Below the pieces are notes generated by a model that saw nothing but the letters and a program-made list of their open reading frames with translations, had not been told where the DNA came from and ran no database searches. A stretch of 64,000 bases of DNA from Thermoplasmata archaeon (GTDB lineage Archaea; Thermoplasmatota; E2; JACPAO01; JAHFTW01), in NCBI GenBank assembly GCA_023269235.1, contig JAHFTW010000001.1, positions 43,548 through 107,547 of the forward strand, written 5' to 3'. Below, one piece after another: positions 17,866-56,513 of this stretch (within the stretch, counting starts at the first letter, position 1; each line of letters starts with the position of its first letter). The translations under genes were made by a program, and so were the position numbers.

Positions 17866-18324
17866 CTAGGCGCTGGGGCCGGTCGCGACCGGATACCCTT
17901 CGTGGCGCCAGCCTGCCATGCCGCCGGTCATCTCCTTGACCTGGAATCCCAGGCGGGCCAGCCGCAGGGCGCCCTTGGTGCTGGCGTTGCAGTGCCAGCT
18001 CGTGCAGTAGGTCACGAGGGCCTTGCCGCGCAGGTGCTCCGTCGTCTCCGGCGCGATGGTGCGGTAGGGCAAGTTCAGTGCGCCGGGGACATGGCCGGCG
18101 GCGAACGAGGTGGCCGAGCGGCAGTCCACAACGACGAACGGGGCGTCGCCTTTGTCGAGGTCCGCCTTGACGTCGCTCGGGTCGGTCTCGAACGCGAGGC
18201 GGGCCGCGAAGTGCGCCTCCGCGACGGCGGGGGCGGCGGGCGGGGTCTCGAGCACGAGGCTGAAGCGGGGCGCGGAGGCCATGGCGCGACAACGGGGGAC
18301 AGGCTCTTGGCCCTCACCCTGCAC
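17866..18324 (-). CDS. Rhodanese-domain sulfurtransferase
   Basis: Active-site loop region LVTYCTSWHCNAS resembles the CX4-5 rhodanese motif. A later start at 18282 (MASAPRF) is possible. Confidence 0.6.
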   Translation of the reverse strand: MQGEGQEPVPRCRAMASAPRFSLVLETPPAAPAVAEAHFAARLAFETDPSDVKADLDKGDAPFVVVDCRSATSFAAGHVPGALNLPYRTIAPETTEHLRGKALVTYCTSWHCNASTKGALRLARLGFQVKEMTGGMAGWRHEGYPVATGPSA

Positions 18325-22544: not shown

Positions 22545-22562
22545 GGAAGGGCCTACATAAAG
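22545..22562. promoter_or_regulatory. TATA-box-like element in the divergent intergenic region (aIF-5A / amino-acid permease)
   Basis: cctacataaaggg is the only AT-rich octamer in the 98-bp divergent region. ~35 nt upstream of the aIF-5A GTG on the minus strand. Confidence 0.3.
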
Positions 22563-22620: not shown

Positions 22621-24042
22621 ATGGCCGACCCCATGCCGGACGCCGACGAGACCCCTTCCGGCGACGGCCTGCGCCGCGAGCTCAACCTCTTCGGCGCGGT
22701 CTCGATGATCGTCGGCATCGTCATCGGCTCCGGCATCTTCCTGGGCGTCAACCGCGTCGCGGCCGGCGCCGGCTCGCCGTGGCTCATCGCGCTGGCCTGG
22801 GTGCTCGGCGGCGCGCTGACGCTCATGGGCGCGCTCACCTACGCGGAGCTGGGGGTCATCTTCCCGCGCGCCGGCGGCGCGTACGTCTTCATCCGCGAGA
22901 GCATCGGACGCTTCCCCGCGTTCCTGCTCGGCTGGACGACCTTCACCGTCAACCTTGCCGGCTCCGCCGCCGCCTTGGCCGTCGTCTTCGCGGCGCAGCT
23001 CAACGTCCTCAAGCCCGGCGGCTTCGGGCCCATCTGGCCTGATCATCCCGACTGGTCCATCAAGGCGACCGCGGCATGCCTCATCCTCCTCGTCGCCATC
23101 ATCAACTACTTCGGCCTGCGCCTCGGCGGCAACGTGCAGAAGGGCTTCACGGTCCTCAAGGGAGGCCTCATGGTGTTCCTCGCCGTCGCGGCCCTCGCGT
23201 ACACAGGACCCCAGGCCGTCGCGCCGATGGGCGCGGCCGCGGCCGACCGCGTCACCGAGCACGGCTTCGACTTTGCCGGATTCTTCGGCCTCGCCATGGT
23301 CGCGGTCTTCTTCGCCTACGACGGCTGGACGAACGTCGCCACCGTGGGCTCCGAAATCAAGGACCCCGCCCGCAACCTGCCGCGCGCCATGCTGTTCGGC
23401 GTCCTCGGCGTCCTCGTGCTCTACCTCTCCGTCTCGTTCGGCTACTTGCACGTCCTCGGCTTCGACGGCTTCGCCAACTCGCAGCGCACCGTGGCGAGCG
23501 ACGCCGCGCATGTGCTGTTCGGCAACCTCGGCCAGGGCCTCGTCGCCGCCGTCATCCTCGTCTCCGTGCTCGGCAGCCTCAACGGCATCACCATCTCGGG
23601 GCCGCGCTTCTACTACGCCATGGCGCGCGACGGCCTCTTCCCGCGCCTCTTCGGCGAGGTGAACCGCCACCACGTCCCGGCCCACTCCATCTGGGGCCAG
23701 GCCGGCCTCGCCATCCTGTTCCTGCTCTTCCTGGACTTCGACCAGCTCACGGGCAGCATCGTCTTCGTCTCGTTCTTCTTCTACGCCCTCGCCGCCGTGG
23801 GCCTGCTCGTGCTGCGCCGCACGCGCCCGGACCTGCCGCGCCCCTACAAGGTGCCCGGCTACCCGGTCGTGCCCATCCTGTACATCGTGGGCAGCGTCTC
23901 GTTCTCGCTCTACCAGCTCTACCTCGCGGTGACGGACTTTGCCCACGCGGGTTACCTGCTCGCGAGCGTCGCCATCGTGGCCGCCGGCGTCCCAGTGTAC
24001 TTGTATTATCGGCGGCGCGGCGCCGCAGTGGACAAGGCCTGA
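22621..24042 (+). CDS. APC-superfamily amino acid permease
   Basis: 12 TM helices. N-terminal GAVSMIVGIVIGSGIF signature. Confidence 0.85.
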   Translation: MADPMPDADETPSGDGLRRELNLFGAVSMIVGIVIGSGIFLGVNRVAAGAGSPWLIALAWVLGGALTLMGALTYAELGVIFPRAGGAYVFIRESIGRFPAFLLGWTTFTVNLAGSAAALAVVFAAQLNVLKPGGFGPIWPDHPDWSIKATAACLILLVAIINYFGLRLGGNVQKGFTVLKGGLMVFLAVAALAYTGPQAVAPMGAAAADRVTEHGFDFAGFFGLAMVAVFFAYDGWTNVATVGSEIKDPARNLPRAMLFGVLGVLVLYLSVSFGYLHVLGFDGFANSQRTVASDAAHVLFGNLGQGLVAAVILVSVLGSLNGITISGPRFYYAMARDGLFPRLFGEVNRHHVPAHSIWGQAGLAILFLLFLDFDQLTGSIVFVSFFFYALAAVGLLVLRRTRPDLPRPYKVPGYPVVPILYIVGSVSFSLYQLYLAVTDFAHAGYLLASVAIVAAGVPVYLYYRRRGAAVDKA

Positions 24043-24800
24043 GCGAGCACGCCCCATTCGTAGGGCGCGATCGCCATGGCGGTGCGGCTGCCGCCCCCGA
24101 TCCAGTCCAGCGCATCGGTCACGGCTTGCGGCGGGATGTTGAGCGTCTCCGCGAGCGGGGAGAGGCTGTGGCGCAAGGTCTTGCGCTTTGACTCCCACGC
24201 GGTGTCGAGGAGGAGCCCCATGCGCTCGGGCTCCACGAACTTCTTCGGCTCGAGGCGCACGACGCAGGAGTCCACGAAGGGGCGCGGCTCGAAGGAGCGG
24301 CGCGAGAGCGGGAACAGGACGCGGGTCTTGGCGCGCAGCGCGGTCTCGACCGTGAGGCGACCGTACGCGTCGGAGCCGACGGGGGCAGTGAGGCGCTCGG
24401 CGAGCTCGTTCGGCATGACGAGGATGAGGCGCCCGACGTCGTGGTCGAGGAGCCGGCGCAGAATGGCTGGGAGGATGCGGTAGGGCGGGTTCGCGACGAC
24501 GGCGTCCACCTTGTCGGGCAGACGGACATGGAGGATGTCACCCTGGACGACCTTGACGCCGTCCCAGCCGCGCCGCTTGAGGACGTCCACGCGGTCGGGG
24601 TGCGACTCGACGGCCACGACCCTTCCTCCGGGCATGACGGCCTTGGAGAGCGGCTCGGTGAGCGCCCCGACCCCGGCGCCAGCGTCCAGAACGGTCTCGC
24701 CGGGCTTCAGCTCCGCCGCGGCCACGATGCGGGCGGCCGCCTCCTCGAGGAGGAAGTGGGCCCCTTCCTGGCGCGTCTCCGGGTCGGTCGGCACAGCCAC
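24006..24800 (-). CDS. rsmA: rRNA small-subunit adenine dimethyltransferase family (KsgA/Dim1-like)
   Basis: SAM motif VLDAGAGVGALT. Catalytic tetrapeptide reads NPPY rather than the usual N[IL]PY. C-terminal FxPxPxVDS motif (FEPRPFVDSCVV). 37-bp convergent overlap with the permease. Confidence 0.6.
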   Translation of the reverse strand: MAVPTDPETRQEGAHFLLEEAAARIVAAAELKPGETVLDAGAGVGALTEPLSKAVMPGGRVVAVESHPDRVDVLKRRGWDGVKVVQGDILHVRLPDKVDAVVANPPYRILPAILRRLLDHDVGRLILVMPNELAERLTAPVGSDAYGRLTVETALRAKTRVLFPLSRRSFEPRPFVDSCVVRLEPKKFVEPERMGLLLDTAWESKRKTLRHSLSPLAETLNIPPQAVTDALDWIGGGSRTAMAIAPYEWGVLAQALSTAAPRRR

Positions 24801-24847: not shown

Positions 24848-26509
24848 GTGCAGGACCTGCGCGTGGCCCAGGCCTTGGCGGCGGCCGCCTACGACGCGTG
24901 GCGCGGCATCCAGGCCCGCAGCGACCTGCACGAGAAGGTCGGCAAAGGCGCGGGCGGCAACGCCACGAGCCGCGCCGACGCGGTCCTGGAGGCCGCCATC
25001 TTGGAAGCCGCAAAGCCGTTCGGGATGAGCGTGCTCTCGGAAGAGGCCGGCTTCGTGAAAGGGGACGGCCCGCTCCTTGCGGTCGTGGACCCGCTGGACG
25101 GGTCCCGCAACGCCGGCCGCGGCATCCCGTTCCACTGCACGAGTGTTGCCGTCGGCCCCGCGACCGGCCGCCTCGGCGACCTACGCGCCGGTGTCGTGCG
25201 CAACCTCGTCACCGGCGACCTGTACGAGGCCACCAAAGGGGGCGGCGCGCTTCTCAACGGCAAGGCCATCGCCCCGCGGCCGTTCGACAGCAAGGAGTTC
25301 CTCCTGGGGACCATCGCCGACTACGCCGAGGCCGAGATCGAGGAGGCACACCGACGCCCCGGCCGCCACATCCGCGACCTCGGCTCGGCCGCGCTTGAGA
25401 TGTGCCTTGTCGGCACTGGCGCCCTCGACGCCTTCCATGTCCGCAAGCCGTGGCTGCGGGTCATCGACATCGCCGCCGCCACGCTTGTCGTGCGCGAGGC
25501 CGGCGGCCAGGTCCTCGACCCGGCGACGGGCCGCGACCTGGACATGCCGCTCAACCTCGAGGTCCGCAGCGGCATCCTCGCGACGCACAGCGCGGGGGCC
25601 CGCAAGGTCCTCCTCGGCTCCGTGACGCCGAAACCCATGCCGGGCCTCGCCGGCGCTCCCTCCAATCCGAGCGGACCCCTCACCTGGGCCCTCGTCGGGA
25701 AGGCCGGCATCCCGCACGTCCGCTCCGAATCGGTCCGGTTGCGCGAGAACCTGGAGAAGAAGGGCCAGGCCGTCCTGCTGGAGACCGACCTCGCGAAGGC
25801 GCTCGGCGGCAAGGCCCACTCGCTCGCCGAGCTCGACCAGCTGGCCGACCTCTTCCTCACCGTCGGCGGCGACGGGACCATCCTGATGACGCAGGCCGTG
25901 ACCGACAAGCCGGTCTTCGGCGTCAACGCTGGAGCCATCGGGTTCCTCGCGGAGGTGGAGCCGCCGCAGGCGGTCGCGGCCATCGACCAGATCCTGCGCG
26001 GCGACTACCGCGTCGAGGAGCGCGACAAGCTCTCCGCGTGGCTCGACGGCAAGCCGCTGCCCGACGCCACGAACGAGGTCACCCTGCAGACCTCGCGCAT
26101 CGCCAAGCTCATCCGGTTCCGCATCAGCGTGAGCGGGGAGGTCCTGGACACACTGCGCGGCGACGGCATCATCGTCAGCACCGCCACCGGCAGCACCGGC
26201 TACGCGATGAGCGTCGGCGGCCCCCTCGTCCACCCGCTCGTGCACGGCACTGTCCTCGCGCCCATTGCTCCGTTCCGCCTCTCCGCGCGGCCATGGGTCG
26301 TCCCGTCGGAGTCCGTGATCGAGCTGACATTGGAGGACCGCGAGTCGCAGACGGGCACCGGCCAGGCGCGCGTCGTGGTGGACGGCCAGCATGGCTTCGA
26401 CGTCGAGCCCGGCCAGGTCGTGCGCGTGGCGCCCTCCACCCGCAAGGCGCGTTTCATCCGGCTCGGCCCCGGCTTCTACGAGCGTGTGCGCTCCAAGCTG
26501 ACGCGGTGA
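24848..26509 (+). CDS. nadK: Bifunctional NADP phosphatase (IMPase/FBPase fold) / NAD+ kinase
   Basis: N-terminal IMPase motifs (VVDPLDGSRNAGRGIP). C-terminal NAD kinase GGDGT (TVGGDGTILM) and NEVTL. Same architecture as the M. jannaschii fusion. Confidence 0.85.
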   Translation: MQDLRVAQALAAAAYDAWRGIQARSDLHEKVGKGAGGNATSRADAVLEAAILEAAKPFGMSVLSEEAGFVKGDGPLLAVVDPLDGSRNAGRGIPFHCTSVAVGPATGRLGDLRAGVVRNLVTGDLYEATKGGGALLNGKAIAPRPFDSKEFLLGTIADYAEAEIEEAHRRPGRHIRDLGSAALEMCLVGTGALDAFHVRKPWLRVIDIAAATLVVREAGGQVLDPATGRDLDMPLNLEVRSGILATHSAGARKVLLGSVTPKPMPGLAGAPSNPSGPLTWALVGKAGIPHVRSESVRLRENLEKKGQAVLLETDLAKALGGKAHSLAELDQLADLFLTVGGDGTILMTQAVTDKPVFGVNAGAIGFLAEVEPPQAVAAIDQILRGDYRVEERDKLSAWLDGKPLPDATNEVTLQTSRIAKLIRFRISVSGEVLDTLRGDGIIVSTATGSTGYAMSVGGPLVHPLVHGTVLAPIAPFRLSARPWVVPSESVIELTLEDRESQTGTGQARVVVDGQHGFDVEPGQVVRVAPSTRKARFIRLGPGFYERVRSKLTR

Positions 26510-26512
26510 GCC

Positions 26513-27061
26513 ATGGGCTTCCTCGGCTTCGGGCGGAAGAAGCGGCGCGAGTACGTCGTGCGCGCCAATTTCATGGATCTCCCCGAGGAAGAGTGGACCG
26601 ACGACGAGTTCGACCACTGGCTCGCCACGTGCCCCGAGGACGAGTACTGGGCCTACTGGGAGGACTGGAGCCGCGCCACCGTCGATCACCCCACGGTGCG
26701 CTCCATCCGGCAGAGCGTCCTCGACCTCGCCCGCGCCGCCGCCGCCTCCAGCCACCCGCAGGAGTTCGGCGCCATGATGCGGCTCAAGGGCGACACCATC
26801 ACCGAACTCGTCCTGCTCCCCATCGTGCAGGGCGACGCGCACACCATCCTCTACACGCACCGGCTCCCGGTGGACCGCACCATCCGGGGGACGCTGCACA
26901 GCCACCCGAGCCCGCACCCGTACCCGTCGGACGCGGACTTCGAGTTCTTCGAGAGCCAAGGCGTCATCCACGTCATCCTCGGCTCCCCCTACGGCCCGGA
27001 TGACTGGCGCGCGTACGGTCACGACGGCCAGCCTGTCAGCCTCCGCGTGGTGGACGGATGA
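26513..27061 (+). CDS. JAMM/MPN+ metalloprotease-domain protein
   Basis: HSHPSPHPYPSDAD matches the JAMM motif HxHx7Sx2D, with an upstream Glu (PQEFGAMM). Stop overlaps the next start (ATGA). Confidence 0.65.
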   Translation: MGFLGFGRKKRREYVVRANFMDLPEEEWTDDEFDHWLATCPEDEYWAYWEDWSRATVDHPTVRSIRQSVLDLARAAAASSHPQEFGAMMRLKGDTITELVLLPIVQGDAHTILYTHRLPVDRTIRGTLHSHPSPHPYPSDADFEFFESQGVIHVILGSPYGPDDWRAYGHDGQPVSLRVVDG

Positions 27062-28044
27062 CTGAACTGGACCCGAGCCTCCTCGCCGCCGGCCTCTTCG
27101 CCCCCGTCGTCGTGTGGGTCCTTTGGCGCGGCCAGACGGTGAGCGTCGAGCTGCTGCGCACGCGCCTGCTGGTCCTGACGCGGCACAAGGACCAGGCGTG
27201 GGTCTACGCCATCGTGAGCTGGTTCGGGACGTTCCTGCACGAGGTCAGCCACGCCCTTGTCCTCCTCCTCAGCGGCCACGGCATCAAGCAGTTCCGCGCC
27301 GGCGTCGAGAAGGGCCACGTCACCCCCGCGACGATGCGCAAAGGCCCCGTCTCGTTCCTGTTCTTCCTCGTCGCGGCCCTTGCGCCGCTGTTCCTCCCCC
27401 CGCTCCTGGTCCTCGTCCTCCTGGCGGTCTTCCTCGACCCTGGCCTCTTCACGTTCGCGCACGGCGGTCCCGGCCTCCAGGTCGCTTGGGACCTCCTGGT
27501 CTCCTTCGGCATGGACTTCCCGCTCCGGCTCGTGCGCGACCTTGGCGACCTCGACCTCGCGAGGCCAGCCCACCTCGGCGTCCTCGCCGCCGTCCTGCTC
27601 GGCATCCCCGGCGCGCGCCCGAGCCACGTCAAGAGCCGCTGGCATGGCCCCGAGGGCGACATCGCGGTGCTCCGGGCCCGCATCCGCGAGAACCCGCTCC
27701 CGTTCGTGGCGTTCTTGCTCATCCTCTACCTGGCCTCGTTTCTCACCCTTGTCTGGCCCGAGGCGTACTGGGTCCCGCTCCAGGCGGTCTGGGCGATGGC
27801 CATCGCCGGCATCGTCCTCGCCCTCTTCGGGAGCCTGTGGTGGAGCCTCGCCGGCCTCGACGGGCGCGTGACGCCCTGGCTCGCCTGGCTCGGGCCCGCC
27901 AGCTTCGTCGCCGTCCAGGTCGCCGCCCGCGTCGTCGCCCTTCCCGCAGGCACGACCTTTCTTCAGGTCAACCTGGCGAGCCTCGCGGCCTGGCTGCTCG
28001 TGGCCCTCGTCCTGGGCGCCGTGGCGCGCCGGTCGAAGGGTTAA
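27058..28044 (+). CDS. M50/site-2-protease-like intramembrane metalloprotease
   Basis: HEVSHAL in a TM helix (HExxH) and a C-terminal LAGLDGR (LDG motif). Polytopic. Confidence 0.55.
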   Translation: MTELDPSLLAAGLFAPVVVWVLWRGQTVSVELLRTRLLVLTRHKDQAWVYAIVSWFGTFLHEVSHALVLLLSGHGIKQFRAGVEKGHVTPATMRKGPVSFLFFLVAALAPLFLPPLLVLVLLAVFLDPGLFTFAHGGPGLQVAWDLLVSFGMDFPLRLVRDLGDLDLARPAHLGVLAAVLLGIPGARPSHVKSRWHGPEGDIAVLRARIRENPLPFVAFLLILYLASFLTLVWPEAYWVPLQAVWAMAIAGIVLALFGSLWWSLAGLDGRVTPWLAWLGPASFVAVQVAARVVALPAGTTFLQVNLASLAAWLLVALVLGAVARRSKG

Positions 28045-28062
28045 GGGTCCCGCGACGGCTGC

Positions 28063-28812
28063 GTGCGCCTGATGGGCGTGCTGATGCTGCCGGGCGAGCG
28101 CGAGGTGGTCCGCCTCCGGCCGACCACTCTCTCCAACCCGTGGGTCCACGTCGGCGCCCTCGGTCTGGGCCTATGGGCCTTGGTCCTCCAGGCGCTCTTC
28201 TCCTCCCGGTCTTGGCTGGAGACGAAGGTCGTGTGGTGGCAGCCCTGGACCTGGTTCGTCGCCAACGATCTCGCCGCCCACTTCTGGGCCGCCACGGCCC
28301 CCGTCGGGGTCGGCCTCGCGCTCGGCCTTCTCGCCCACAAGCGCCTGGGGCTCTGGCTCGCGGTCGGCTCCGCCATCGGCGCCAGCCTCGTCACGCTCCT
28401 GCTCGCCATCCCTGCCGCGCAGGGGCTCCCGGTCTCCGTCGCGGCGATGGCCGTCCTGGTCCTCGTCTTCGCCGAGCTGCGACGCCGCTCGCAGCACTTG
28501 GCCGTCACCACGCTGCGCCTCGTCGCCTGGCAGGAGTTCCCGCGCCGCCGGGAATGGACGGCCCGCCATGCCGACCTGGTGGACCTGGAGCTCCGGCAGG
28601 GCGCCCTCGCCCGCGGCCTCGGCACCGGCACGCTCGTCGCCGTCCAAGGCGACGGCTCGCGCACCCTCTTCTGCAACGTCGCGCGGGCCTCCCGCGTCCG
28701 CACGCTTGCCGAGGCGCTCGTGCGCCAGGCCACCGCGACACCCTACCTGCGCGAGAGCCAGGACCTCGACCGCCAGGTCGCGGATGCCCTCGCGGCCTTG
28801 CAGCGCCGCTGA
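28063..28812 (+). CDS. Membrane protein with C-terminal PH-like (bPH_2/YdbT-like) domain, putative
   Basis: Two or three N-terminal TM helices followed by a soluble domain. The assignment is weak. Confidence 0.35.
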   Translation: MRLMGVLMLPGEREVVRLRPTTLSNPWVHVGALGLGLWALVLQALFSSRSWLETKVVWWQPWTWFVANDLAAHFWAATAPVGVGLALGLLAHKRLGLWLAVGSAIGASLVTLLLAIPAAQGLPVSVAAMAVLVLVFAELRRRSQHLAVTTLRLVAWQEFPRRREWTARHADLVDLELRQGALARGLGTGTLVAVQGDGSRTLFCNVARASRVRTLAEALVRQATATPYLRESQDLDRQVADALAALQRR

Positions 28813-28881
28813 AGCAAGCCTCATCCTCCCCTGCGCGGTCGAAGCGCCGTGGCCATCGTCCGTTGCTTGCGCAACGGAGAA

Positions 28882-29211
28882 ATGCCACCCCCGGCTCCGA
28901 CGGGCGTGGCCTTCTGCGGCAACTGCAAGAGCCTCGTCTACCCCGTGGGCGGGAAGCTCTCGTGCAAGAAGTGCGGCTGGAGCTCGGACGGACCGGCCGC
29001 CGCCAACGTCGTGCGCACCGCCGCGTCAGGCACCAAGCGCGTCGTGCTGGAGAAGAAGGAGGAGGCGCGCCCCCTCCAGACGACGACCTGCCCGAAGTGC
29101 TCCCACGACCGCGCCTACTTCCACCTCATGCAGACGCGGCGCTCGGACGAACCGCCGACGCAGATCAACGAGTGCGAAGCGTGTCATCACTCGTGGCGCG
29201 ACTACGGATGA
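28882..29211 (+). CDS. tfs: Transcription factor S (TFS) / RNA polymerase subunit M-like
   Basis: N-terminal Zn ribbon CGNC...CKKCGW and C-terminal CPKCSHDRAYFHLMQTRRSDEPPT...CEACHH (TFIIS-type ribbon with acidic hairpin). Start chosen at the ATG after the ggag RBS; the longer ORF has a GTG at 28849. Confidence 0.8.
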   Translation: MPPPAPTGVAFCGNCKSLVYPVGGKLSCKKCGWSSDGPAAANVVRTAASGTKRVVLEKKEEARPLQTTTCPKCSHDRAYFHLMQTRRSDEPPTQINECEACHHSWRDYG

Positions 29212-29284: not shown

Positions 29285-30133
29285 TCAGGGCCCAGCGGCC
29301 GTGAAGTTCGGGTCGGGCGGCTGGAGATAAAACGCGGTGAAGATGGCCTCGAAGTCCTGGTCGAAGGCGAAGGCGGCTCCGGCCCCGGCCTCGAGCTCGT
29401 CGAGGTTGGCCCCGACGCTCCACGTGACCCGGACCGTTCCCCCGCCCGAGTAGTATTTCTTGCTCGCGGCCTGGCCCACCACGACACGAAGAATGCTGCC
29501 TCCCTGCGCGGCCGCGAGCAGCGTGTCCTTGTCCCCGAAGCCGACCGTTTCCACGGTGGCGTTGAGATACTGCGCAAGCGGTGTCCGCGGTGCCCAGGAC
29601 GTCTCGAGGACGACTCCAGCCAGGTCCCCGTTGACCTGGAACTCCGCGACACGCTGGCTCACCCCCGTGTTGACGCCCTGGACGCTGCTGCAGTCGCGCA
29701 CATCGGCCCCGCCGCTGGTCTCGACGTCGGCCTCGCACACGATGAACCCCTTGAACTTCTGCGACACCGCGTAGGGTTTCGAGGAAGGGACAGGGTCGAG
29801 CGTGAAGTTGAGGAGGGTCGAGTTGCCGACCGAGACGCTCACGGCCTTGCCGCGCGGCAGGAAGCCCTTGGCCTCGACGACGACCACGAGCGGGACCTGG
29901 GCAGGGAGGCTTGGGAAGGCGAAGCGGCCATCGTTGCCCGACGTGGCTGTCGCGTTGGCGCTAGCGATGGTCACCTTGGCCCCCACCACCGGGCGCACTC
30001 CCGAGTCCACGATGTAGCCCTGGAGCATCGGGAACTCGTCTGACCCGGCCGCAGGGCCGGTGGACTCCGCCGGCCCGGAGCAACCCGCCAGCAGCAACAG
30101 GACCGGGATGGCGAACGCGAGGGCACCGCGCAT
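29285..30133 (-). CDS. Secreted lipoprotein with carboxypeptidase-regulatory-like (CarbopepD_reg) beta-sandwich domain
   Basis: Lipobox LLAGCSG, then GYIVDSGVRPVVGAKVTI...TSGNDGRFAF. Paralogous to the next gene. Confidence 0.6.
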   Translation of the reverse strand: MRGALAFAIPVLLLLAGCSGPAESTGPAAGSDEFPMLQGYIVDSGVRPVVGAKVTIASANATATSGNDGRFAFPSLPAQVPLVVVVEAKGFLPRGKAVSVSVGNSTLLNFTLDPVPSSKPYAVSQKFKGFIVCEADVETSGGADVRDCSSVQGVNTGVSQRVAEFQVNGDLAGVVLETSWAPRTPLAQYLNATVETVGFGDKDTLLAAAQGGSILRVVVGQAASKKYYSGGGTVRVTWSVGANLDELEAGAGAAFAFDQDFEAIFTAFYLQPPDPNFTAAGP

Positions 30134-30179
30134 GCCCGTGCCGCGCCCGCGAGCCGTGGAGGCCGAGGTGAAGCCGGCG

Positions 30180-31028
30180 TCAAGCCTTGGTGATGGTGTA
30201 GTCGGGTGGGGGCGGGGCGACATAGAAGAGGCTCGCGAAGGCGTCCACTTGCTGCTCGAACGCGAACCCGGCGCCAGCGGCCACCTCGTTCGCGTCGTTG
30301 TTGGGGTCCACCCGCACGGTGAGCTTCATCACGCCGCCGGGGGTGTAGTATTTCTGGGCCGTCGCCTGGGGGACGGTGAGCCGCAGCGGCGACGTGGAGA
30401 CCCCCTCGGCGAGGATGACGTTGAGCTGGCCCAGGTTGAGGGTCTCCAGGCGCGCGCTGAGCGCGGACTCCAGCGGGGACTGGGCCGTCCAGGCCAGCTC
30501 GAGGACGACGCCCGCCAGGTCCGGGCCGACGGCGATCTCCCATTGGTCCCTGCTCGCGGATTCGATGCCCGTTCCTGAGCTGCAGTCGTACGTGGAGTTC
30601 TGGCCGGACACCTCCGTCGCGACCTGGCAGGCGATGAACAGGGTCTGCGGGAGCTTCTGCATGAAGGGGGTCTTCGACGAGATGGGCTCCATGGTGAAGT
30701 TCAGCCGCACCGTGGACTGGGTCGGGACGCTGACCTGCTTCGACAGGGGCGTGAAACCATCCTTGGTCGCTACGAGGAGCAGAACGCGGTCCACGGGCAA
30801 GTCGGTGAACGCGTAGTGGCCGCTCGCGTCCGTCGTCGCCGTGGCGTTGGTGTCCAGCACCCGCACGTGAACGTCCTTCATCGGGACGATGCCAGGATCC
30901 AGGACGTAGCCGGACAGAAGCGGCGTCCCGGGTGGGACCCCTGCGTCTGACGCGCCTGTGCCCGAGTCGGTCTGGCTACAGCCCGCCAACAGCATCAGGG
31001 CGGCGGCCGCGAGGGCGGTCGGTCTCAT
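30180..31028 (-). CDS. Secreted lipoprotein with CarbopepD_reg-like domain (paralog)
   Basis: Lipobox LLAGCSQ, then GYVLDPGIVPMKDVHVRV...TDASGHYAF. ~35-40% identical by eye to the previous gene. Start overlaps the M14 stop. Confidence 0.6.
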   Translation of the reverse strand: MRPTALAAAALMLLAGCSQTDSGTGASDAGVPPGTPLLSGYVLDPGIVPMKDVHVRVLDTNATATTDASGHYAFTDLPVDRVLLLVATKDGFTPLSKQVSVPTQSTVRLNFTMEPISSKTPFMQKLPQTLFIACQVATEVSGQNSTYDCSSGTGIESASRDQWEIAVGPDLAGVVLELAWTAQSPLESALSARLETLNLGQLNVILAEGVSTSPLRLTVPQATAQKYYTPGGVMKLTVRVDPNNDANEVAAGAGFAFEQQVDAFASLFYVAPPPPDYTITKA

Positions 31029-33496
31029 CGCGTGCGGCGCATGGCGACGGCGAGGGCCGCGAGGGCCAGGACGCCGAGGGCCAGCTCGAAGCCGGGGGTT
31101 CCCTTGCCCTGCGAGGAGCTCGCGGCGTGGCTGGCGGCCGCGGCGGCCGGCTCGTTGGGGGTCTGCTGAATGATGCCCTTGTCGTTGATGACGACGGGCG
31201 GGGCTTCGAGCACGTTGCCCCAGTACAGCATGTTGCGCAGAATCTGGTTGCCCGAGTACGTGGTGGCGTAGTGGTCCAGGCCGTAGGGGTGGTAGAACTC
31301 CTCCGTCGGGTCGGGCAACAGCGAGCCGATGAACTGGATCTGGCCCTTGCCGAGCGGGATCTTGCCGAGGCCGACGCCGTTGCCGGCGCAGCGGTCGCTG
31401 ATGCTCGTCGAGCCGCAGGCGATGCCCCAGACGTCGCCGCCGACCTTGCTCAGGGCGTCCGTCTTGACGAACCAGTTGGGGACCGCGTTGGCGCCCGTCT
31501 CGAAGCCGAGCGGGGTAGGCTCGACCGTCTGCTTGACGCCGCCGCGCACGTTGCGGTTGGCCTCGCTCGAGGCGTCCTGGTACTCGTAGAACACGGGCTT
31601 GGAGAGGTCCATCGCCTCGCCGCCCATGTACTGCAGGACGTTGTCCACGGCGCCGGAAGTGACGCCGGCGAGGTCGAGGAACTTGAGCGCCGAGTCGGTG
31701 AGGACGAGGTTGCCGCCGTCTTGGACCCAGCCCTTGATGGCCTCGACCGTCGCGGGGCTGCCGGCGATCTGCTCGATGGCGGAGCCGGGAATGACGAAGG
31801 AGTCGAAGCCGTTCAGCTTGGCGCGGGTGATCTCCTGGGTGGTCGCCTTGACGAGCACGCCCGGCTGGTTGCCGTTGCGCACGTAGGGCTTCAGGTCCTC
31901 CCAGTACTTGGCGGGGCGAGCAACGAAGCCGCCGTTCTTCCCGTAGTCCCACAGGTCGTCGCCGGGGTTCTTGTCGGCCCAGCCGCCGGGGGTCTTCAGG
32001 TTCCCTTTCTCGTCGATGTCGTCCTTGTTCGTGGCGACGAAGGTGGGCTCCAGGTAGAGGGTGCGCTTGCCGTGCGTCTCGAAGCTGATCTTGACGTCGA
32101 GGGCCGCGGCGTCCATGAAGGACTTGACGATCTCGCGCACGATCTTGACGTGGAAGTCGTTGAAGACCTGGCCGGGGCCGTACTGCGAGTCGGTCGTGAT
32201 GTGGTTGTAGGCCAACTCGATGTCGTAGCCAGGCGCGTTGAGGCCGGAGTCCTGGGCGAAGTAGTCGCCGTTGAAGCCGGAGTCAGTGTAGCCGATGGCG
32301 TCGATGACGGTGTAGTACTCGGCGAACTGGCTGGAGCCGGCGTTGGCGAGGGCGCCCTGCGTGAAGCACTCGTTGGCGGCGGTGCAGGCCGTGTTCTCGA
32401 CGTTCTCACCATTCTGGAACAGGTTTTGCCACCCGTCGAAGTGCGGGTCGTCGTTGAGGCGCTGCTTGAGGGTCTCGGCGAGGCGGACGCTGCGCTGCAT
32501 CTCCTGCGGCGTCATGGACGCGGCGGGCATCATGATGGCGCCGAAGTTCTGGTGGTTCAGCATGCCGTGGATGTCGATCGCGTAGCTCCAGGTGATGTTC
32601 TGCGTGAGCATCCAGTTGTAGTAGCCGATGGATTCCGGCTCGCCGACGGGGTCGCGCTGGGGGTTCTGCCAGCCGAGGGTGGGGGCCTGGCGGTTCAAGT
32701 CGACGTTGTGGCCGTTGGTGCGGCAGAAGCCGGGGCCGGCGCCGCAGTAGGGGTCCAGGATGAAGGGAACCTCGTCATGGGCCCATCCGTCCGCGTTGGG
32801 GAACAGGAGGAAGATGCGCATGAAGTCCAGGTAGTCGCGGTACGTGGAGACGTCGCCGCCGGTGGGCTTGGCAAGGGGCGTTGGCATGCCGGCGCCGTTC
32901 TGGACGGTCTCGGCCGCGAAGCCGATTCCCTTCAGGAGATCCTCGAGGACGCGGAAGCCGCCTTCGCGGCCGCCCTTCTCGTTGCCGTGGATGGAGAGCA
33001 TGAACAGCATCGACTGGCGGTTCTCCATTGGGATGGGGGAGTCCTTGTTGGTGATCTCCAGCATGTAGATGGGGAAGCGGACGCGGGCGCTGTCGGCGCA
33101 GCCGGGGCCCGTGGGGCAGCCGCCGACGGAGTCGGAGACATGGTGGACGGTGAGGTACTTCTTGCCCATCTCCGAGTTGGCGAGGTAGTCGAGCGCGGCC
33201 TGGAACTCGAAGTAGGAAACGTAATCGGTGGCTGGCAGGGAGCTGGCGCCCGCGAGCGCGTAGGGGGACCCGGCGGTCGAGAGGGGGCTGGCCTCGGGGA
33301 AGACGCGGCCGGTTGCGGACTCGCACACGCTGGGCATGATGACTGGGGGGACCATCGAGGGGGCGGGGCTGACCGAGCCAAGACAGTAGGGGACCGCCGG
33401 ATTGGCCGCCGCGGGGGTGGGAACAAGCGTGAACACGAAGAGCGCGGCCGCGAGCAGGGCGGGGCCGTTGCGCAGGAGGCGGGAGCCTTCCGACAT
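31025..33496 (-). CDS. Secreted M14-family zinc carboxypeptidase-like protein with PGF-CTERM archaeosortase sorting signal
   Basis: Signal peptide. SIHGNEKGG (M14 HxxE zinc site). C-terminus ...GTPGFELALGVLALAALAVAMRRTR* is PGF plus TM plus a basic tail. Confidence 0.7.
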   Translation of the reverse strand: MSEGSRLLRNGPALLAAALFVFTLVPTPAAANPAVPYCLGSVSPAPSMVPPVIMPSVCESATGRVFPEASPLSTAGSPYALAGASSLPATDYVSYFEFQAALDYLANSEMGKKYLTVHHVSDSVGGCPTGPGCADSARVRFPIYMLEITNKDSPIPMENRQSMLFMLSIHGNEKGGREGGFRVLEDLLKGIGFAAETVQNGAGMPTPLAKPTGGDVSTYRDYLDFMRIFLLFPNADGWAHDEVPFILDPYCGAGPGFCRTNGHNVDLNRQAPTLGWQNPQRDPVGEPESIGYYNWMLTQNITWSYAIDIHGMLNHQNFGAIMMPAASMTPQEMQRSVRLAETLKQRLNDDPHFDGWQNLFQNGENVENTACTAANECFTQGALANAGSSQFAEYYTVIDAIGYTDSGFNGDYFAQDSGLNAPGYDIELAYNHITTDSQYGPGQVFNDFHVKIVREIVKSFMDAAALDVKISFETHGKRTLYLEPTFVATNKDDIDEKGNLKTPGGWADKNPGDDLWDYGKNGGFVARPAKYWEDLKPYVRNGNQPGVLVKATTQEITRAKLNGFDSFVIPGSAIEQIAGSPATVEAIKGWVQDGGNLVLTDSALKFLDLAGVTSGAVDNVLQYMGGEAMDLSKPVFYEYQDASSEANRNVRGGVKQTVEPTPLGFETGANAVPNWFVKTDALSKVGGDVWGIACGSTSISDRCAGNGVGLGKIPLGKGQIQFIGSLLPDPTEEFYHPYGLDHYATTYSGNQILRNMLYWGNVLEAPPVVINDKGIIQQTPNEPAAAAASHAASSSQGKGTPGFELALGVLALAALAVAMRRTR

Positions 33497-48202: not shown

Positions 48203-50422
48203 CTACAGGAACTCCATCCCGCCGGCGTTGCCGGTGGCGGCCTTCTTGACGGCGGTCTGGCCAAGCTGCTCGGCGAGGCGGTCGTAGTACTTGATGACCT
48301 CCTCGGTCACCGAGCTGCGAACACTGCGGAGCGCCTCCTCGAAGTGGTTCTTGTTGACGATGCGGGCCTTGCGGTCCTCGCGCAGCGCCATGATGGCGGA
48401 CTCGCGACAGAGGCTCTCCAGGTCGGCGCCGACGTAGCCCTTCGTGAGCTTGGCGAGCTCGGCGAGGTCCACGTCCTTGCCGAGCGGCATGCCGGCCGTG
48501 TGGACCTTGAGGATCTGCAGGCGGGCGCCCTCGTCGGGGGCGCTGACCTTGATGACGCGGTCGAAACGGCCGGCACGCAGCAGGCCGGGGTCGATGATGT
48601 CGGGACGGTTGGTGGCGCCGATGATGACGACGCCCTCCATGCCCTCGAGGCCGTCCATGAGCGTCAGGAGCTGGTTGACGATGCTCTCCGTGACGTGGCT
48701 GCCCTCGTAGGCGCCGCGGCGCGGGGCGATGGAGTCGATCTCGTCGAGGAAGACGATGCTCGGGCTTGCCTGTTTCGCCTTCTTGAAGATCTCGCGAATG
48801 GCCTTCTCGGACTCGCCGACCCACTTCGACAGGACCTCGGGGCCCTTGACGCTGAGGAAGTTGGCGCCGGACTGGTTCGCGACCGCCTTGGCAAGAAGGG
48901 TCTTGCCGGTGCCGGGGGGACCGTAGAGCAGGATGCCGCGCGGCGGCTTGATGCCCATGCGGGTGAACGACTCGGGGTCCTCGAGGGGCCACTCGACGGC
49001 CTCCTTGAGCTGCTGCTTGACCTCGGCGAGGCCGCCGACGGTCTCCCAGGTGACGTTGGGGACCTCGACGAGGAACTCGCGCAGGGCCGAGGGGTCCACG
49101 ATCTTGAGGGCGCCCTTGAAGTCGTCCGCGTTGACGTTCATGCGCTCCAGCAGTTCGGCGGGGACCGGCTGGTCAAGGTCAATCTCAGGGAGGAAGCGCC
49201 GGAGCGATTTCATGGCGGCCTCGCGGGCGAGGGCCATCAGGTCGGCGCCGACGAAGCCGTGCGTCTGGTCCGCGAGCGACTCCAGGCTCACGTCCTCCGC
49301 CTTCGGCATGTTGCGCGTCTGGATCATGAGGATCTCGAGGCGGCCCTCCTTGTCGGGGACGCCGATCTCGACCTCGCGGTCGAAGCGGCCAGGGCGGCGG
49401 AGTGCTGGGTCAATGGAGTCAGGGCGGTTGGTGGCGCCGATGACGATGATCTTGCCGCGGCCCTTGAGGCCGTCCATGAGGGTGAGCATCTGGCTCACGA
49501 CGCGGCGCTCGACCTCGCCCTGGACCTCGTCGCGCTTCGGGGCGATAGCGTCCATCTCGTCGATGAAGACGATGCTGGGGGCGTTCTTCTCGGCCTCCTC
49601 GAAGGTCTTGCGCAGGTTCTCCTCGGACTGGCCGTAGAACTTGCTCATGATCTCGGGGCCGTTGATGGTGTAGAACTGCGCGCCGGCCTCGTTGGCGACC
49701 GCCTTGGCGATCATGGTCTTGCCCGTGCCGGGCGGGCCGTGCAGCAGGACGCCCTTGGGCGGGTCGATGCCGAGGCGCTCGAAGAGCTCGGGGTGCTTGA
49801 GGGGCAGCTCGATCATCTCGCGGACGTTCGTGAGGGCCTCGCGCAGGCCGCCGATGTCCTCGTAGCTGATCTGCGAGACGGCGGCGCCGGCGCTGGTGGC
49901 GGCCTCCTCGCTGACCTTGATCTGGGTCTCCTCGTTGATGAGCACGATGCCCTTGGGGTTCGTGCTGATGATGCTGAACGGGAGGGCGTTGCCGAACAGC
50001 GCGATGTTGGGGACGACGACGATGTCGCCCTGGACGCAGGGGCGCTTGAGCAGGCCGCGCTTGGCAAGAGCGTCGATGCCGTCGCCGAACTGAATCTGCT
50101 GGTCCTGGCTGATGGCGGGCGCCAGGGTGACCTGCTTGGCCGGCTTGACATCGGCCTTCTTGATGGCGACCTTGTCGCCGATGCTGACGCCGGCGTTCTT
50201 GCGCGTCAGGTTGTCCACATGGATGATGCCCTTGCCCTCGTCGCCGGGGTGCGAGCGCCAGACGACGGCGGCGGTCGTCTTGTGGCCCTTGATCTCGATG
50301 ATGTCGCCGGGGCTGAGGTTCAGTTCGACGCGGGTCTGGCCGTCGAGGCGGGCACGGCCGTAGGACACGTCCTGCTGGAGGGCCTCGACGACGCGGAGGG
50401 TGGCTTCGGTCTTGGTGGCCAT
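48203..50422 (-). CDS. cdc48: Cdc48/VCP/p97-type AAA+ ATPase (N domain plus two AAA domains)
   Basis: Two Walker A boxes (GPPGTGKT twice), SRH regions, the N-terminal double-psi barrel region and a C-terminal tail. Confidence 0.95.
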
Positions 50423-50586: not shown

Positions 50587-52488
50587 TCAGTTTAGGAAGA
50601 GGGCGAAGCAGATGTAGCTCAGCGCCACCATGACGAAGGCGTGGCGGAGGCCAAGGATGGCCTTGCCCGACCCCATCTGCCCCGCTACGATGCCGTCGCC
50701 CAGCCCCTGCAGGACGGCGGCGAGCAGGTAGAACAGCTGGTAGTCCTGGAGGCTCAGCGTCTGGCCCTTGAGCGCCCCGAACGAGGCCAGCTGGGTCTGG
50801 TTCGCGGCGGCCTGGCTCGCGGCGACAAGCTGTGGCACGAACTGCGCGTACATGATCGAGGCCACGCCGAGGAACACGAGGAAGGTCACGTAGATGACGA
50901 CGGTGTAGAGGCTCATTGAGAGGCGGCGCTCGGTCTCGAGCGTCTTGATCTCGCGCGCGTCGCGGGCGGCCGCGATGAGCACCTCGGTCGTGGAGCCGCC
51001 GGAGCGGTCCGCCTGCAAGATGAGCGTCACCGCGCGCTGGACGAGCGGCGTGCGCACCCGCTCCGCGAAGCGCTGCAGGACCTCCTGGAAGCCGACGTTC
51101 CAGGTCACCTGGTCCGCCATGCGCCGCACCTCGGGCGTGAGCGGCCCGTAGTCGCCGCGCGCCGCCACCGCGATGGCGCTCGCGAGCGTGAGGCCGCCTT
51201 TGTGGCTCGAGGCGATGTCGCGCAGGAAATCCGGGAAGCGCTCCTCAAGCTGCCGGATGCGCTTCTGCTCGCGCGCCGCGTAGAAGCCGTACGGCCCCAG
51301 GGCGACCAGCAGGCCGAGGCAGAAGAAGTGGATCCAGGCGTTGGGTGGCATCCCGAGGAGGCTGTTGCCCGAGAACAGGATGAACGCGGGGACCATCAGA
51401 AGCACCGCGCCGACGGCCGAGCCGCCGAGGAGGAACGCTTCGCGCAGCTTCTTCGCGTCCGTCTTGACCTGGAAGAGCGGCGGCTCCAGCGGCTCCGAGC
51501 GGGCAAGGCGGAAGGCGGCGGCCAGGCTCAGGCCCATCGCCAGGAGAAGGAACCCGAAGACGCCCAGGATGACTGGGTCCTTCGCGACGTCGGCGAAGAC
51601 GCCCACCACCCCAAGGCCGAGGAGGATGAAGAGCAAGAACACCAGCATCAGCAGCGCGAAGGCCGCCAGGATGGGCAGGAAGATGGCGCGGTTTCGGTTG
51701 ATGGCCGGGCCGCCCGCCATGCCGCGGTCGCTGCCGAGGATGGCGCCGATGCTGGGCAGGCTGCGGCTGCGGATGAGCGCAAAGGAGGCCGCCGCACCCG
51801 CGCCGAGGGCGAGGAGCGGGACGTCGGCGTCCTGCGCCCCGCCGCGAAGGCTGAGCCACCCGACGAGGAGCGCGAGGACCGCCACCAGGCTGAGCCCGAG
51901 GAACGTGAGCAACGTGCGCGCCTCGCTGCCCGGGCGCGGAGGGCCTTGGAGCGTGGTCCAGTGCGCGTAGCCGCCGACGCCGAGCAGGATCGCGAGCATC
52001 GCGAGCGCGCCCTTGCCAAGGATCTCGTACGCGAACGGCAGGTGCAGGACCCCGTACCGGGCCGGGAGCGCGAAGCCAAGGACGACGACGGAGAGGATGA
52101 GGAGGACATGCAGCATCAGCGTGGAGATGCGCAACCGCTGGGCGACCTCGAGCTGCCGTGTCCGTTCGCCGGCGTCTTTCGCGCCGTAACGGCGCAACCG
52201 GTCGACGGGGTGTCCCAGGACGGAGCCGACCGCCACCAGGAGGAGACCGGCCGCGAGCAGCAGGCCCATCACCTGGGGCCAGGCGCCTCCGACGGGGACG
52301 GTGAGGCCCGCCGCGCCGACGATGGAGAGGGCGGTGCCGAGGGCTCCGCAAATGAGGGTGGCCAGCTCCAGGCCGGGGTGGGGCTGGGTGGGAGCGGTGG
52401 GAGGGGACACCTCGAGGTCGGGACGGCTCTCAAAGGCTGGCAGGCGCAGGAGCTTCCCGGCGGGGCCGTCGTCGCGTGGGTCCGCCAT
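50587..52488 (-). CDS. TadC/FlaJ-like polytopic membrane protein (T2SS-F domain) of a type IV pilus-like system, with extended N-terminal membrane region
   Basis: T2SSF-like segment FPDFLRDIASSHKGGLTLASAIAVAA. Multiple TM helices. Adjacent to the TadB-like protein and the ATPase. Confidence 0.7.
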   Translation of the reverse strand: MADPRDDGPAGKLLRLPAFESRPDLEVSPPTAPTQPHPGLELATLICGALGTALSIVGAAGLTVPVGGAWPQVMGLLLAAGLLLVAVGSVLGHPVDRLRRYGAKDAGERTRQLEVAQRLRISTLMLHVLLILSVVVLGFALPARYGVLHLPFAYEILGKGALAMLAILLGVGGYAHWTTLQGPPRPGSEARTLLTFLGLSLVAVLALLVGWLSLRGGAQDADVPLLALGAGAAASFALIRSRSLPSIGAILGSDRGMAGGPAINRNRAIFLPILAAFALLMLVFLLFILLGLGVVGVFADVAKDPVILGVFGFLLLAMGLSLAAAFRLARSEPLEPPLFQVKTDAKKLREAFLLGGSAVGAVLLMVPAFILFSGNSLLGMPPNAWIHFFCLGLLVALGPYGFYAAREQKRIRQLEERFPDFLRDIASSHKGGLTLASAIAVAARGDYGPLTPEVRRMADQVTWNVGFQEVLQRFAERVRTPLVQRAVTLILQADRSGGSTTEVLIAAARDAREIKTLETERRLSMSLYTVVIYVTFLVFLGVASIMYAQFVPQLVAASQAAANQTQLASFGALKGQTLSLQDYQLFYLLAAVLQGLGDGIVAGQMGSGKAILGLRHAFVMVALSYICFALFLN

Positions 52489-52489
52489 G

Positions 52490-53374
52490 CTAGGCCTCCG
52501 GGGTCATGACCTTGATCGTCCACGCGAAGCCCGCCTGGGCCATCGGGATGAGGACGAAAATCAGGAGGTAGCCGATGAGCAGGTTGTCGCCCCCGGAGCC
52601 GCCAAACGTGGTCATGACGGAGAGGATGACGATGAGGAAGAGCGGCGCGGCGACGACGACGGTGACGAACGCCTCGGCGAGCACGCCCAGCCCTTCGAGG
52701 AACTTGCGCTGTTCCTGGCGGTTGTCAAGGAGGTATTGGTCGGCCTTGTCGGAGAAGTACGTCTTGAGGTCGCCGCCCGAGGTGAGCGCCGTCACGGCGC
52801 CCTGCAGGAAGTCCTGGAACTTCGTGCTGGGGCTGCGGTCAATGGCGCGCGCCAGGGCGCCCATGATGTCCTGGCCCAGGACCCGCAGGTCGCGCACGAT
52901 CCAGGCGCATTCTTGCGCGACCTCGCCATAGAGCGGCTGCGCGGCGAGGCCGGCGAAGAGCTGCTCCGGCGTCGCTCCCGCGGAGGCCATGGTCGAGATG
53001 TAGTTCAGCGCGTACGGCAGCTTGGCGTTGAGGCCCCGGCTGCGGTTGAGGGTGCGCAAGTCGGGAAGGATGATGGCGGAGAGGTACACCATGATGGCGA
53101 GCACCACCGGTGCTGGCACGAGGAAGATGAACAGGCCCGCCGGGATGCTCGCGAGGCCGGTGAGGCTGGCGAGGATTAGGACGAGGACGGGGATGAGAGC
53201 AAGCAGCCCCGCCAGAGCCGCCGTGAGGTAGGCCGAGGCGAGGTACACCTCGGGCCGCAGCAGGATGTGGGCGCGCTCGAGCGCGAGGCGCAGGTGGGCG
53301 TTCTGGCTCGCCGCGCGTGTGGCGAGCGGCCCGAACCAGCGGTACCCGAGGCGCTCGAGGCTGCGCAGCGCCAT
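52490..53374 (-). CDS. TadB-like membrane protein (T2SS-F domain)
   Basis: Soluble helical segment between TM hairpins (LPYALNYISTMASAGATPEQLF). Start chosen at MALRSLERLGY, 1 nt after the ATPase stop. The longer ORF (to 53449) would overlap the ATPase by 74 nt. Confidence 0.6.
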   Translation of the reverse strand: MALRSLERLGYRWFGPLATRAASQNAHLRLALERAHILLRPEVYLASAYLTAALAGLLALIPVLVLILASLTGLASIPAGLFIFLVPAPVVLAIMVYLSAIILPDLRTLNRSRGLNAKLPYALNYISTMASAGATPEQLFAGLAAQPLYGEVAQECAWIVRDLRVLGQDIMGALARAIDRSPSTKFQDFLQGAVTALTSGGDLKTYFSDKADQYLLDNRQEQRKFLEGLGVLAEAFVTVVVAAPLFLIVILSVMTTFGGSGGDNLLIGYLLIFVLIPMAQAGFAWTIKVMTPEA

Positions 53375-53375
53375 G

Positions 53376-55370: not shown

Positions 55371-55453
55371 GGAGGTCCAGTCCTTCAGGGTGAGACGGTC
55401 GTGTGGCAGGGATTGTCTTGAGGCGCTTAACCGTTTCCGGAGGAGCCGGAGCC

Positions 55454-56497: not shown

Positions 56498-56513
56498 CCG
56501 TCTCGCCTCGGGC

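Follow-up and report, generated by a model that had tools for sequence, protein, structure and literature searches.

A four-gene core, consisting of an NAD kinase gene, a JAMM/MPN+ metalloprotease gene, a gene for a polytopic membrane protein of the site-2-protease (S2P) clan and a gene for a membrane protein with a bacterial-type PH (bPH_2) domain, is conserved in two lineages of archaea as two tight pairs, NADK-JAMM and MEM-bPH, joined at a soft JAMM/MEM junction. We detected this core in a 64-kb stretch of a contig of an uncultured Thermoplasmata archaeon (hereafter the window), which has ~70% G+C along its whole length. We propose, with a probability of about 0.5, that the four genes may represent one compact operon encoding two functional pairs. 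In the window, NADK denotes the fusion protein encoded at 24848-26509, MEM the 328-aa membrane protein encoded at 27058-28044, and bPH the protein encoded at 28063-28812; together with the gene that follows them, the genes of the block are:

24848..26509, + strand: bifunctional NADP phosphatase (inositol-monophosphatase family)/NAD kinase fusion (NADK), with PF00459, PF01513 and PF20143 above threshold
26513..27061, + strand: type-2 JAMM/MPN+ metalloprotease (AfJAMM/HvJAMM2 group), 182 aa, soluble, with a Prok-JAB match
27058..28044, + strand: polytopic membrane metalloprotease-like protein of the site-2-protease clan, divergent M50B-like, 328 aa (MEM)
28063..28812, + strand: membrane protein with a C-terminal bPH_2 domain, 249 aa (bPH); the ATG at 28072 may be the true start
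28849..29211, + strand: transcription factor S (TFS), TIGR01384, 75.9 bits against a cut-off of 64.75

Gene layout and conservation of the neighbourhood

The five successive open reading frames (ORFs) on the plus strand between 24848 and 29211 have G+C contents at third codon positions (GC3) of 0.89-0.94, which is the third-position bias of genuine genes in this genome, and the JAMM, MEM and bPH ORFs reach 0.94 each, a strong coding signature. The NADK stop codon is located 3 nt ahead of the JAMM ATG, the JAMM stop and the MEM start overlap as ATGA at 27058-27061, and gaps of 18 nt and 36 nt separate MEM from bPH and bPH from TFS, respectively. This agrees with an initial annotation of the window, which had described the JAMM/MEM overlap and a TFS gene immediately downstream. 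The same annotation had suggested that the NADP-phosphatase/NAD-kinase fusion directly upstream may share the transcript of the downstream genes, and this is very probably the case because of the 3-nt gap and the absence of any AT-rich, promoter-like stretch from 24848 to TFS. The scan for AT-rich sequence found a TATA-like element solely upstream of the amino-acid permease gene, at 22553, and none in 24848-29211, which is weak evidence for a single transcript.

Overall, ~190 related loci were compared, among them those of the lineage of the window and those of a second, distant lineage of low-GC archaea of anoxic sediments, for which a metagenome scan found 213 relatives and 80 loci were kept. 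Relatives of JAMM and MEM are present in records labelled as Thermoplasmatota archaeon metagenome-assembled genomes (MAGs). Loci of the window lineage run from amino-acid permease through (KsgA), IMPase/NADK, JAMM, MEM and bPH_2 to TFS, often with PCNA next, and this order is retained down to 40-44% MEM identity. The second lineage keeps the order NADK, JAMM, MEM and bPH_2 with other flanks: upstream stands a geranylgeranyl-reductase-like gene, and downstream a gene for pyruvoyl arginine decarboxylase (PvlArgDC). Because the order recurs in a distant lineage with different flanks, we conclude that the four-gene core is a real conserved neighbourhood.

The distances between the genes, taken from alignment coordinates, separate the junctions of the core as follows:

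NADK-to-JAMM gap of <=60 nt: window lineage 25/28, second lineage 53/53, total 78/81
MEM-to-bPH gap of <=150 nt or overlapping: window lineage 14/16, second lineage 73/73, total 87/89
JAMM-to-MEM gap of <=150 nt: window lineage 17/22, second lineage 42/60

NAD kinase is the most constant neighbour of JAMM across both lineages, and in the 73 second-lineage loci the median overlap of MEM with bPH is 25 nt. The JAMM/MEM junction contains unrelated inserts of 0.3-3.7 kb in 23/82 loci (5/22 in the window lineage and 18/60 in the second), with a mixed cargo of Alba, regulators, response regulators, opposite-strand beta-lactamase-like genes and small membrane proteins. Besides, MEM is absent and bPH lies directly after JAMM in at least three window-lineage loci (L027, L028 and L031), and no JAMM gene is found in the 1.6-5 kb upstream of MEM in ~9 second-lineage loci. 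As an observation on the inserts themselves, they recur in L011, L015, L018, L019, L036 and L089-L162, and that of L015 is a possible toxin-antitoxin-sized pair.

The JAMM and MEM genes are therefore conserved together in related genomes, as their tight spacing in 17/22 and 42/60 loci attests. The co-occurrence of JAMM and M50-like genes across archaea, to which the initial annotation had pointed, holds in the two lineages and not in the other archaea compared. Type-2 JAMM genes of Halobacteria, Methanomicrobiales, Iainarchaeum and one Thermoplasmata MAG have no NADK, MEM, bPH or TFS gene within 5 kb, and clustering of their neighbours in Halobacteria and Methanomicrobiales, in which spurious high-GC ORFs predominated, yielded no conserved partner of use. 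Solo MEM relatives with an intact HExxH occur on a Methanolobus-related metagenome contig (L167), in Micrarchaeia and on three other contigs, two of them of ~2 kb, and none of these has an adjoining JAMM or bPH gene.

Catalytic motifs and clan placement of MEM

The features of MEM that bear on its possible activity, with conservation assessed in an alignment of 115 homologues of 39-78% identity, are the following:

27238..27252, + strand: HEVSH (residues 61-65), predicted zinc-binding/catalytic HExxH, inside modelled helix 44-71
27274..27327, + strand: beta-hairpin directly after the HExxH helix, G73-H74-G75 ... G86-H87-V88-x-P90, with modelled strands 78-81 and 86-89
27616..27660, + strand: R187-P188-S189 ... 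G200-D201, conserved Pro and distal Asp, with P188, S189, G200 and D201 invariant
27856..27864, + strand: "LDG" (residues 267-269), variable among homologues (LAG, LTA, VDG, LMA, MNA) and not a conserved column

H61, E62 and H65 are invariant, so that the HExxH in a transmembrane helix reported initially stands. Further invariant residues are G73-H74-G75, G86, A106/A107/A109/P110 (in AALAP), P188-S189 and G200-D201, and H87, V88 and P90 are nearly invariant. In RseP-type site-2 proteases, a re-entrant beta-hairpin comes after the HExxH helix, and the hairpin of MEM is presumably its counterpart. The distal LDG, which the initial annotation had taken as a hallmark of M50/S2P proteases, has to be replaced by D201 as the conserved distal Asp. 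When short M50B-like (PF13398-positive) relatives are aligned, D201 falls on the D of their PSxGD, and the MEM family has 9-12 residues inserted between PS and GD, compared to P-S-x-G-D in the short relatives. Since this family insert lies between PS and GD, D201 is the equivalent distal Asp, and it is the probable third zinc ligand; the loop between RPS and GD is modelled at low confidence (pLDDT 58-71). The strict conservation of HExxH, D201, H74 and H87 in the window lineage argues for an active metalloenzyme.

The Pfam scores of the window MEM are below threshold both for Peptidase_M50B (PF13398; 21.5 bits against 26) and for DUF3267 (PF11667; 21.7 against 27.1), while some of its orthologues match PF13398. 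An exhaustive profile search of 1.84 billion representatives retrieved only 60 proteins at E<=1e-3. Among 41 of these that were examined as distant relatives, each matched at E 1e-34 or weaker, 28 are assigned to Peptidase_M50B (PF13398) and four to Peptidase_M50, and the Methanolobus relative passes PF13398 strongly in precomputed records. A Foldseek comparison of the MEM model with the PDB gave no match below E 0.1, and the family profile found nothing among PDB sequences even at E 10. The best structural matches are site-2 proteases. We place MEM, by its sequence relationships, in a divergent M50B-like branch of the site-2-protease clan; of the protease assignment made initially, the clan membership holds through the distant relatives, and the scores of the window protein itself fall short.

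Both catalytic segments of MEM have basic residues on their flanks (K77, R80, K85, R94 and K95; R187, K192, R194, R206, R208 and R210). By the positive-inside rule and analogy with the topology of RseP, on which this orientation is based, the distribution suggests that the active site faces the cytoplasm.

A MEM branch without the catalytic residues

In the second lineage, the position that reads L-H-E-V-S-H-A in the window lineage reads F/Y-Q-T/S-x-C-H-A (e.g., FQTICHA) in essentially all of the ~80 loci. H61, E62, H74 and H87 are all replaced, and the Asp equivalent to D201 is kept. Four representatives (P0225, P0227, P0228 and P0232) lack H61 and E62, are otherwise conserved, and keep the pairing with bPH. 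The JAMM of this lineage, in turn, has its full catalytic motif in 59/59 complete sequences. Since a protease-dead MEM holds its position beside bPH and usually near JAMM, sequential proteolysis cannot be what keeps these genes together. The MEM orthologues concerned, in L086-L166 (e.g., L086:1905-2987), would represent a natural pseudo-protease branch of an S2P-clan family.

Family and N-terminal region of JAMM

The sequence of the JAMM protein has three features of interest:

26762..26938, + strand: catalytic motif E84 ... H129-S-H131-x7-S139-x2-D142, read directly from the sequence
26513..26551, + strand: hydrophobic-polybasic N-terminal peptide, MGFLGFGRKKRRE, modelled as disordered (pLDDT ~50)
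26585..26671, + strand: acidic, Trp-rich helical hairpin ahead of the JAMM core, with helices 30-39 and 42-54 modelled at pLDDT 91-97

The complete JAMM motif noted initially is borne out by the alignment, as E84, H129, H131, S139 and D142 are invariant among 83 JAMM homologues; like MEM, JAMM looks catalytically competent in the window lineage. The protein passes the curated threshold of PF14464 (Prok-JAB) and has the MPN fold. It matches AfJAMM at E 4e-33 and PfJAMM1 (5lda) at E 1.5, and its score of 16.3 bits, compared to a cut-off of 130, places it outside NF041370, the JAMM1 desampylases. The role assigned to it in the initial annotation, removal of SAMP modifiers, can thus not be that of a JAMM1-type desampylase, and the sequence places it in the type-2 AfJAMM/HvJAMM2 group. 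This placement was made through the likeness to AfJAMM, HvJAMM2 itself not having been compared, and the grouping of AfJAMM with Haloferax JAMM2 is that of Fu et al. 2016 (PMC4895103). Deletion of jamm2 stabilises TBP2, and recombinant HvJAMM2 and AfJAMM are inactive alone in vitro; they are presumed to have partners (PMC4895103).

The window JAMM has ~60 N-terminal residues beyond AfJAMM. The motif M[GS][FIL]F[KR][KR]K (MGFF-KRKK type) is found at the N-terminus in both lineages, and this peptide could help JAMM to dock at the membrane or on a partner. The hairpin, in which W28, E32, W46, W49, W52 and S53 are invariant in the 83 homologues, is specific to the window lineage and is found neither in AfJAMM and the halo- and methanoarchaeal homologues nor in the 138-aa JAMM of the second lineage. 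It hence occurs only in the lineage with an active-looking MEM, a correlation that is anecdotal because only two lineages are involved.

One further JAMM relative, P0210 (298 aa, on a 1.6-kb contig), has its JAMM core fused to an unrelated N-terminal region of ~180 residues. It was considered as a JAMM-MEM fusion and rejected, as these 180 residues match none of eight locus proteins (NADK fusion, JAMM, MEM, bPH, TFS, permease, KsgA and eIF5A); P0210 may be a chimeric assembly or another domain architecture.

The NADK fusion and the bPH protein

The ORF at 24848-26509 joins an Inositol_P domain to the N- and C-terminal domains of NAD_kinase, and all three Pfam domains pass. Compared with NF010678 (MJ0917-type NADP phosphatase/NAD kinase) it scores 306 bits (E 6e-91), under the equivalog cut-off of 493. 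NADP phosphatase and NAD kinase form one fused ORF in the window and its nearest relatives, and in farther members of the window lineage they are two genes with a 4-nt overlap (L001:3850-5441, L003:3199-4781, L084:937-2522). No phosphatase-like ORF adjoins NADK in the scanned flanks of the second lineage.

The bPH protein has hydrophobic segments at residues 28-48 and 98-139. Its own bPH_2 match is sub-threshold (E 0.015; 16 bits against a cut-off of 22), and PF03703 is recorded for its orthologues in L001, L084 and L086. The description as a PH-like membrane protein that had been given to it is therefore upheld by the N-terminal hydrophobic segments and by the orthologues, and falls short in the window protein itself. 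TFS follows bPH in the window lineage only, its place being taken in the second lineage by the pyruvoyl arginine decarboxylase gene.

Proposed organization and alternative explanations

We hypothesize that the block is one compact operon encoding two functional pairs. The first pair would consist of the NAD kinase, here fused to NADP phosphatase, and the soluble type-2 JAMM, which most likely acts on ubiquitin-like (SAMP-type) conjugates as a partner-dependent isopeptidase, the role put forward for HvJAMM2. The second pair would consist of the polytopic S2P-clan membrane protein and the membrane protein with a cytoplasmic bPH_2 domain. In the form present in the window, MEM most likely works as a zinc-dependent intramembrane or juxtamembrane protease with a site open to the cytoplasm, and bPH would be its obligate partner, serving as regulator, gate or substrate adaptor. 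The two pairs would be co-expressed here, given the ATGA overlap, and would usually stand side by side, with a pair-to-pair link that is loose and independent of protease activity. Because the link has this character, a direct relay from JAMM to the protease is optional at best.

Three points weigh against this proposal. Both lineages may be related Thermoplasmatota, in which case the shared order could partly be inherited synteny. The collinear housekeeping block in which the core is embedded in the window lineage makes linkage weak evidence for any single pair inside it. Finally, a MEM-bPH complex is suggested solely by the adjacency of the two genes.

An alternative is pure neighbourhood inheritance, in which four unrelated housekeeping genes would be kept in a slowly decaying ancestral order and the overlaps would reflect compact genomes. 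In the window lineage, eIF5A, amino-acid permease, (KsgA), IMPase/NADK, JAMM, MEM, bPH, TFS, PCNA and primase form a collinear block of ~10 genes that has no recognisable shared theme, and insertions between JAMM and MEM are frequent. Four-base overlaps are, moreover, common between same-strand prokaryotic genes. However, the four-gene core persists in a distant lineage with both flanks replaced, and the MEM-bPH (87/89) and NADK-JAMM (78/81) linkages are far tighter than drift predicts at protein identities of 40-50% or below, and the MEM-bPH overlap has a median length of 25 nt across 73 loci. We consider pure inheritance unlikely, although it has to be taken seriously.

The initial annotation had proposed that JAMM and the membrane protease constitute one physical two-step module, in which JAMM would take a ubiquitin-like modifier off a membrane-tethered substrate, or prime this substrate in another way, before an S2P-type cleavage frees a regulator. 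Several observations are in line with such a module, i.e., the ATGA overlap seen in the window as well as in L001/L084, the tight succession of MEM after JAMM in 17/22 and 42/60 loci of two lineages, and the view that type-2 JAMMs need partners (PMC4895103). Besides, the window lineage joins an intact MEM HExxH with a structured extra N-terminal domain of JAMM, the conserved hydrophobic-polybasic peptide could bring JAMM to the membrane, and the basic residues around the MEM catalytic segments suggest a site facing the cytoplasm, the side of JAMM. On the other hand, the JAMM/MEM junction is the loosest of the core and tolerates 0.3-3.7 kb of unrelated genes in 23/82 loci, MEM is missing from L027, L028 and L031 and JAMM from the upstream region in ~9 second-lineage loci, and MEM keeps its position while being catalytically dead across the second lineage. 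Intact MEM relatives occur elsewhere without an adjoining JAMM, as do type-2 JAMMs of other archaea without a nearby MEM, and the 64-kb window contains no SAMP or E1 gene: no ThiF/MoeB E1 and no ThiS/MoaD modifier were found among the ~46 ORFs scanned, and the small SAMP-like ORFs ending in GG in the window were antisense artefacts only. The two-step mechanism has weak support, and where the conserved core is concerned the data contradict it; we regard it as improbable.

Another arrangement, to which we give quite low credence, is that the MEM-bPH pair could be a partner platform that holds and activates the type-2 JAMM at the cytoplasmic face by means of the N-terminal peptide and the Trp hairpin. 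If so, the removal of ubiquitin-like modifiers would be coupled to membrane-protein quality control or to the release of a tethered regulator, and the protease-dead MEM branch would retain the docking role only.

That MEM was never a protease, being a structural or scaffolding subunit for bPH whose HExxH is a relic or a non-peptidase metal site, is very improbable: the ~80 second-lineage loci and P0225, P0227, P0228 and P0232, which lack H61/E62 and are otherwise conserved and paired with bPH, the sub-threshold Pfam scores of the window MEM and the failure of the family profile to find any PDB sequence are outweighed by the conservation of H61, E62, H65, D201 and H74 (invariant) and H87 (nearly so) in 115 homologues down to 39% identity, by the intact relatives that pass PF13398 strongly (the Methanolobus protein), and by site-2 proteases being the best structural matches.

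Wider genomic context

Other genes of the window touch on the subject at a distance. At 48203-50422 (- strand), ~20 kb from JAMM, lies the gene of a Cdc48/p97-type double AAA ATPase, which has the domains CDC48_N and CDC48_2. Genes for Cdc48-type AAA ATPases are common in archaea, and this one is relevant solely because Cdc48c, like JAMM2, has an effect on TBP2 turnover in Haloferax. A rhodanese-domain gene lies a few kb upstream of the core at 17866-18324 (- strand), and one is likewise present in the distant relative L001 (L001:1-713), there with DUF302. Rhodaneses are sulfur-transfer proteins of a type that works with ubiquitin-like sulfur carriers; scans of the window showed no sulfur-carrier gene.

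A gene for a KsgA/RsmA rRNA dimethyltransferase is located at 24006-24800 (- strand), between those for the permease and NADK, and shares 37 nt (24006-24042) with the permease ORF at the 3' end of the latter; KsgA is found in this position only in the closest sub-lineage (L010-L014, L016, L019-L021 and L025). After TFS, two adjoining paralogous ORFs on the opposite strand, at 29285-30223 (- strand) and 30180-31952 (- strand), look secreted or lipid-anchored. The ORF at 29285-30223 has a carboxypeptidase-regulatory-like domain, and the C-terminal half of the ORF at 30180-31952 is, by eye, similar to it in sequence. Farther away, a type IV pilus or archaellum-like assembly locus extends over 50587-60741 (- strand), with two T2SSF membrane proteins, a T2SSE ATPase, proteins with an archaeal pilin N-terminal domain and DUF7289, and a response-regulator receiver gene. 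A reading of the region as a defence island was rejected, as PADLOC gave faint JAB matches only, with no defence-system context.

Relation to known systems and implications

Every protein of the core belongs to a known superfamily, and the differences lie in the details. The nearest known systems to the window JAMM are AfJAMM (AF2198, PDB 1r5x/1oi0) and JAMM2 of Haloferax volcanii. The window JAMM has the extra N-terminal region of ~60 residues, which AfJAMM and the halo- and methanoarchaeal homologues lack, and the AfJAMM/HvJAMM2-type genes of halo- and methanoarchaea, in contrast, do not stand beside NADK, MEM or bPH. As the protein is by sequence no member of the JAMM1 desampylases (HvJAMM1, PfJAMM1; NF041370), cleavage of SAMP cannot be assumed from NF041370.

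MEM shares with the site-2 proteases (MEROPS M50, clan MM: SpoIVFB, RseP, MjS2P) the HExxH in a membrane helix followed by a beta-hairpin and, probably, the later conserved Pro...Asp. It differs from them by having no NxxPxxxLDG, its Asp lying 12 residues past RPS behind an inserted loop, by having neither PDZ nor CBS domains, and by ~10 helices compared to 4-6. The family is also tiny (60 representatives in 1.84 billion), with one whole branch that lacks the catalytic His and Glu. TmcP, a DUF3267 protein that has HExxH as well as a distal Asp and Pro, has been experimentally shown to act as an intramembrane protease of the S2P clan and to depend on a small membrane partner, TmcE (2026 preprint, PMC13252029). 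This system shows that such minimal S2P-clan relatives are real partner-dependent intramembrane proteases.

The bPH protein resembles YdbS/YdbT of Bacillus and DdE/DdF of enterocin DD14 in that N-terminal transmembrane segments precede a probable cytoplasmic PH domain of the bacterial type. Such bPH_2 proteins have been linked to the handling of membrane-active peptides (PMC8657885). Unlike these proteins, the archaeal bPH is paired with an S2P-clan protein and not with a second PH protein or an ABC transporter.

What is new in the current study is the N-terminal domain that the type-2 JAMM of one lineage carries, a small archaeal family, assigned by sequence to the S2P clan, with active-looking and apparently dead branches, the strict pairing of MEM with a bPH_2 protein, and the recurrent pairing of NADK with JAMM; literature searches returned no title or abstract addressing NADK-JAMM or MEM-bPH associations. 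These findings do not overturn current views and are a modest lead more than a surprise. For the partners that type-2 JAMMs are presumed to have, the neighbourhood gives concrete candidates, NAD kinase first and then the membrane pair. MEM, with active-looking and dead forms that are each tied to bPH, also offers a tidy system for studying non-catalytic roles of S2P-like scaffolds.

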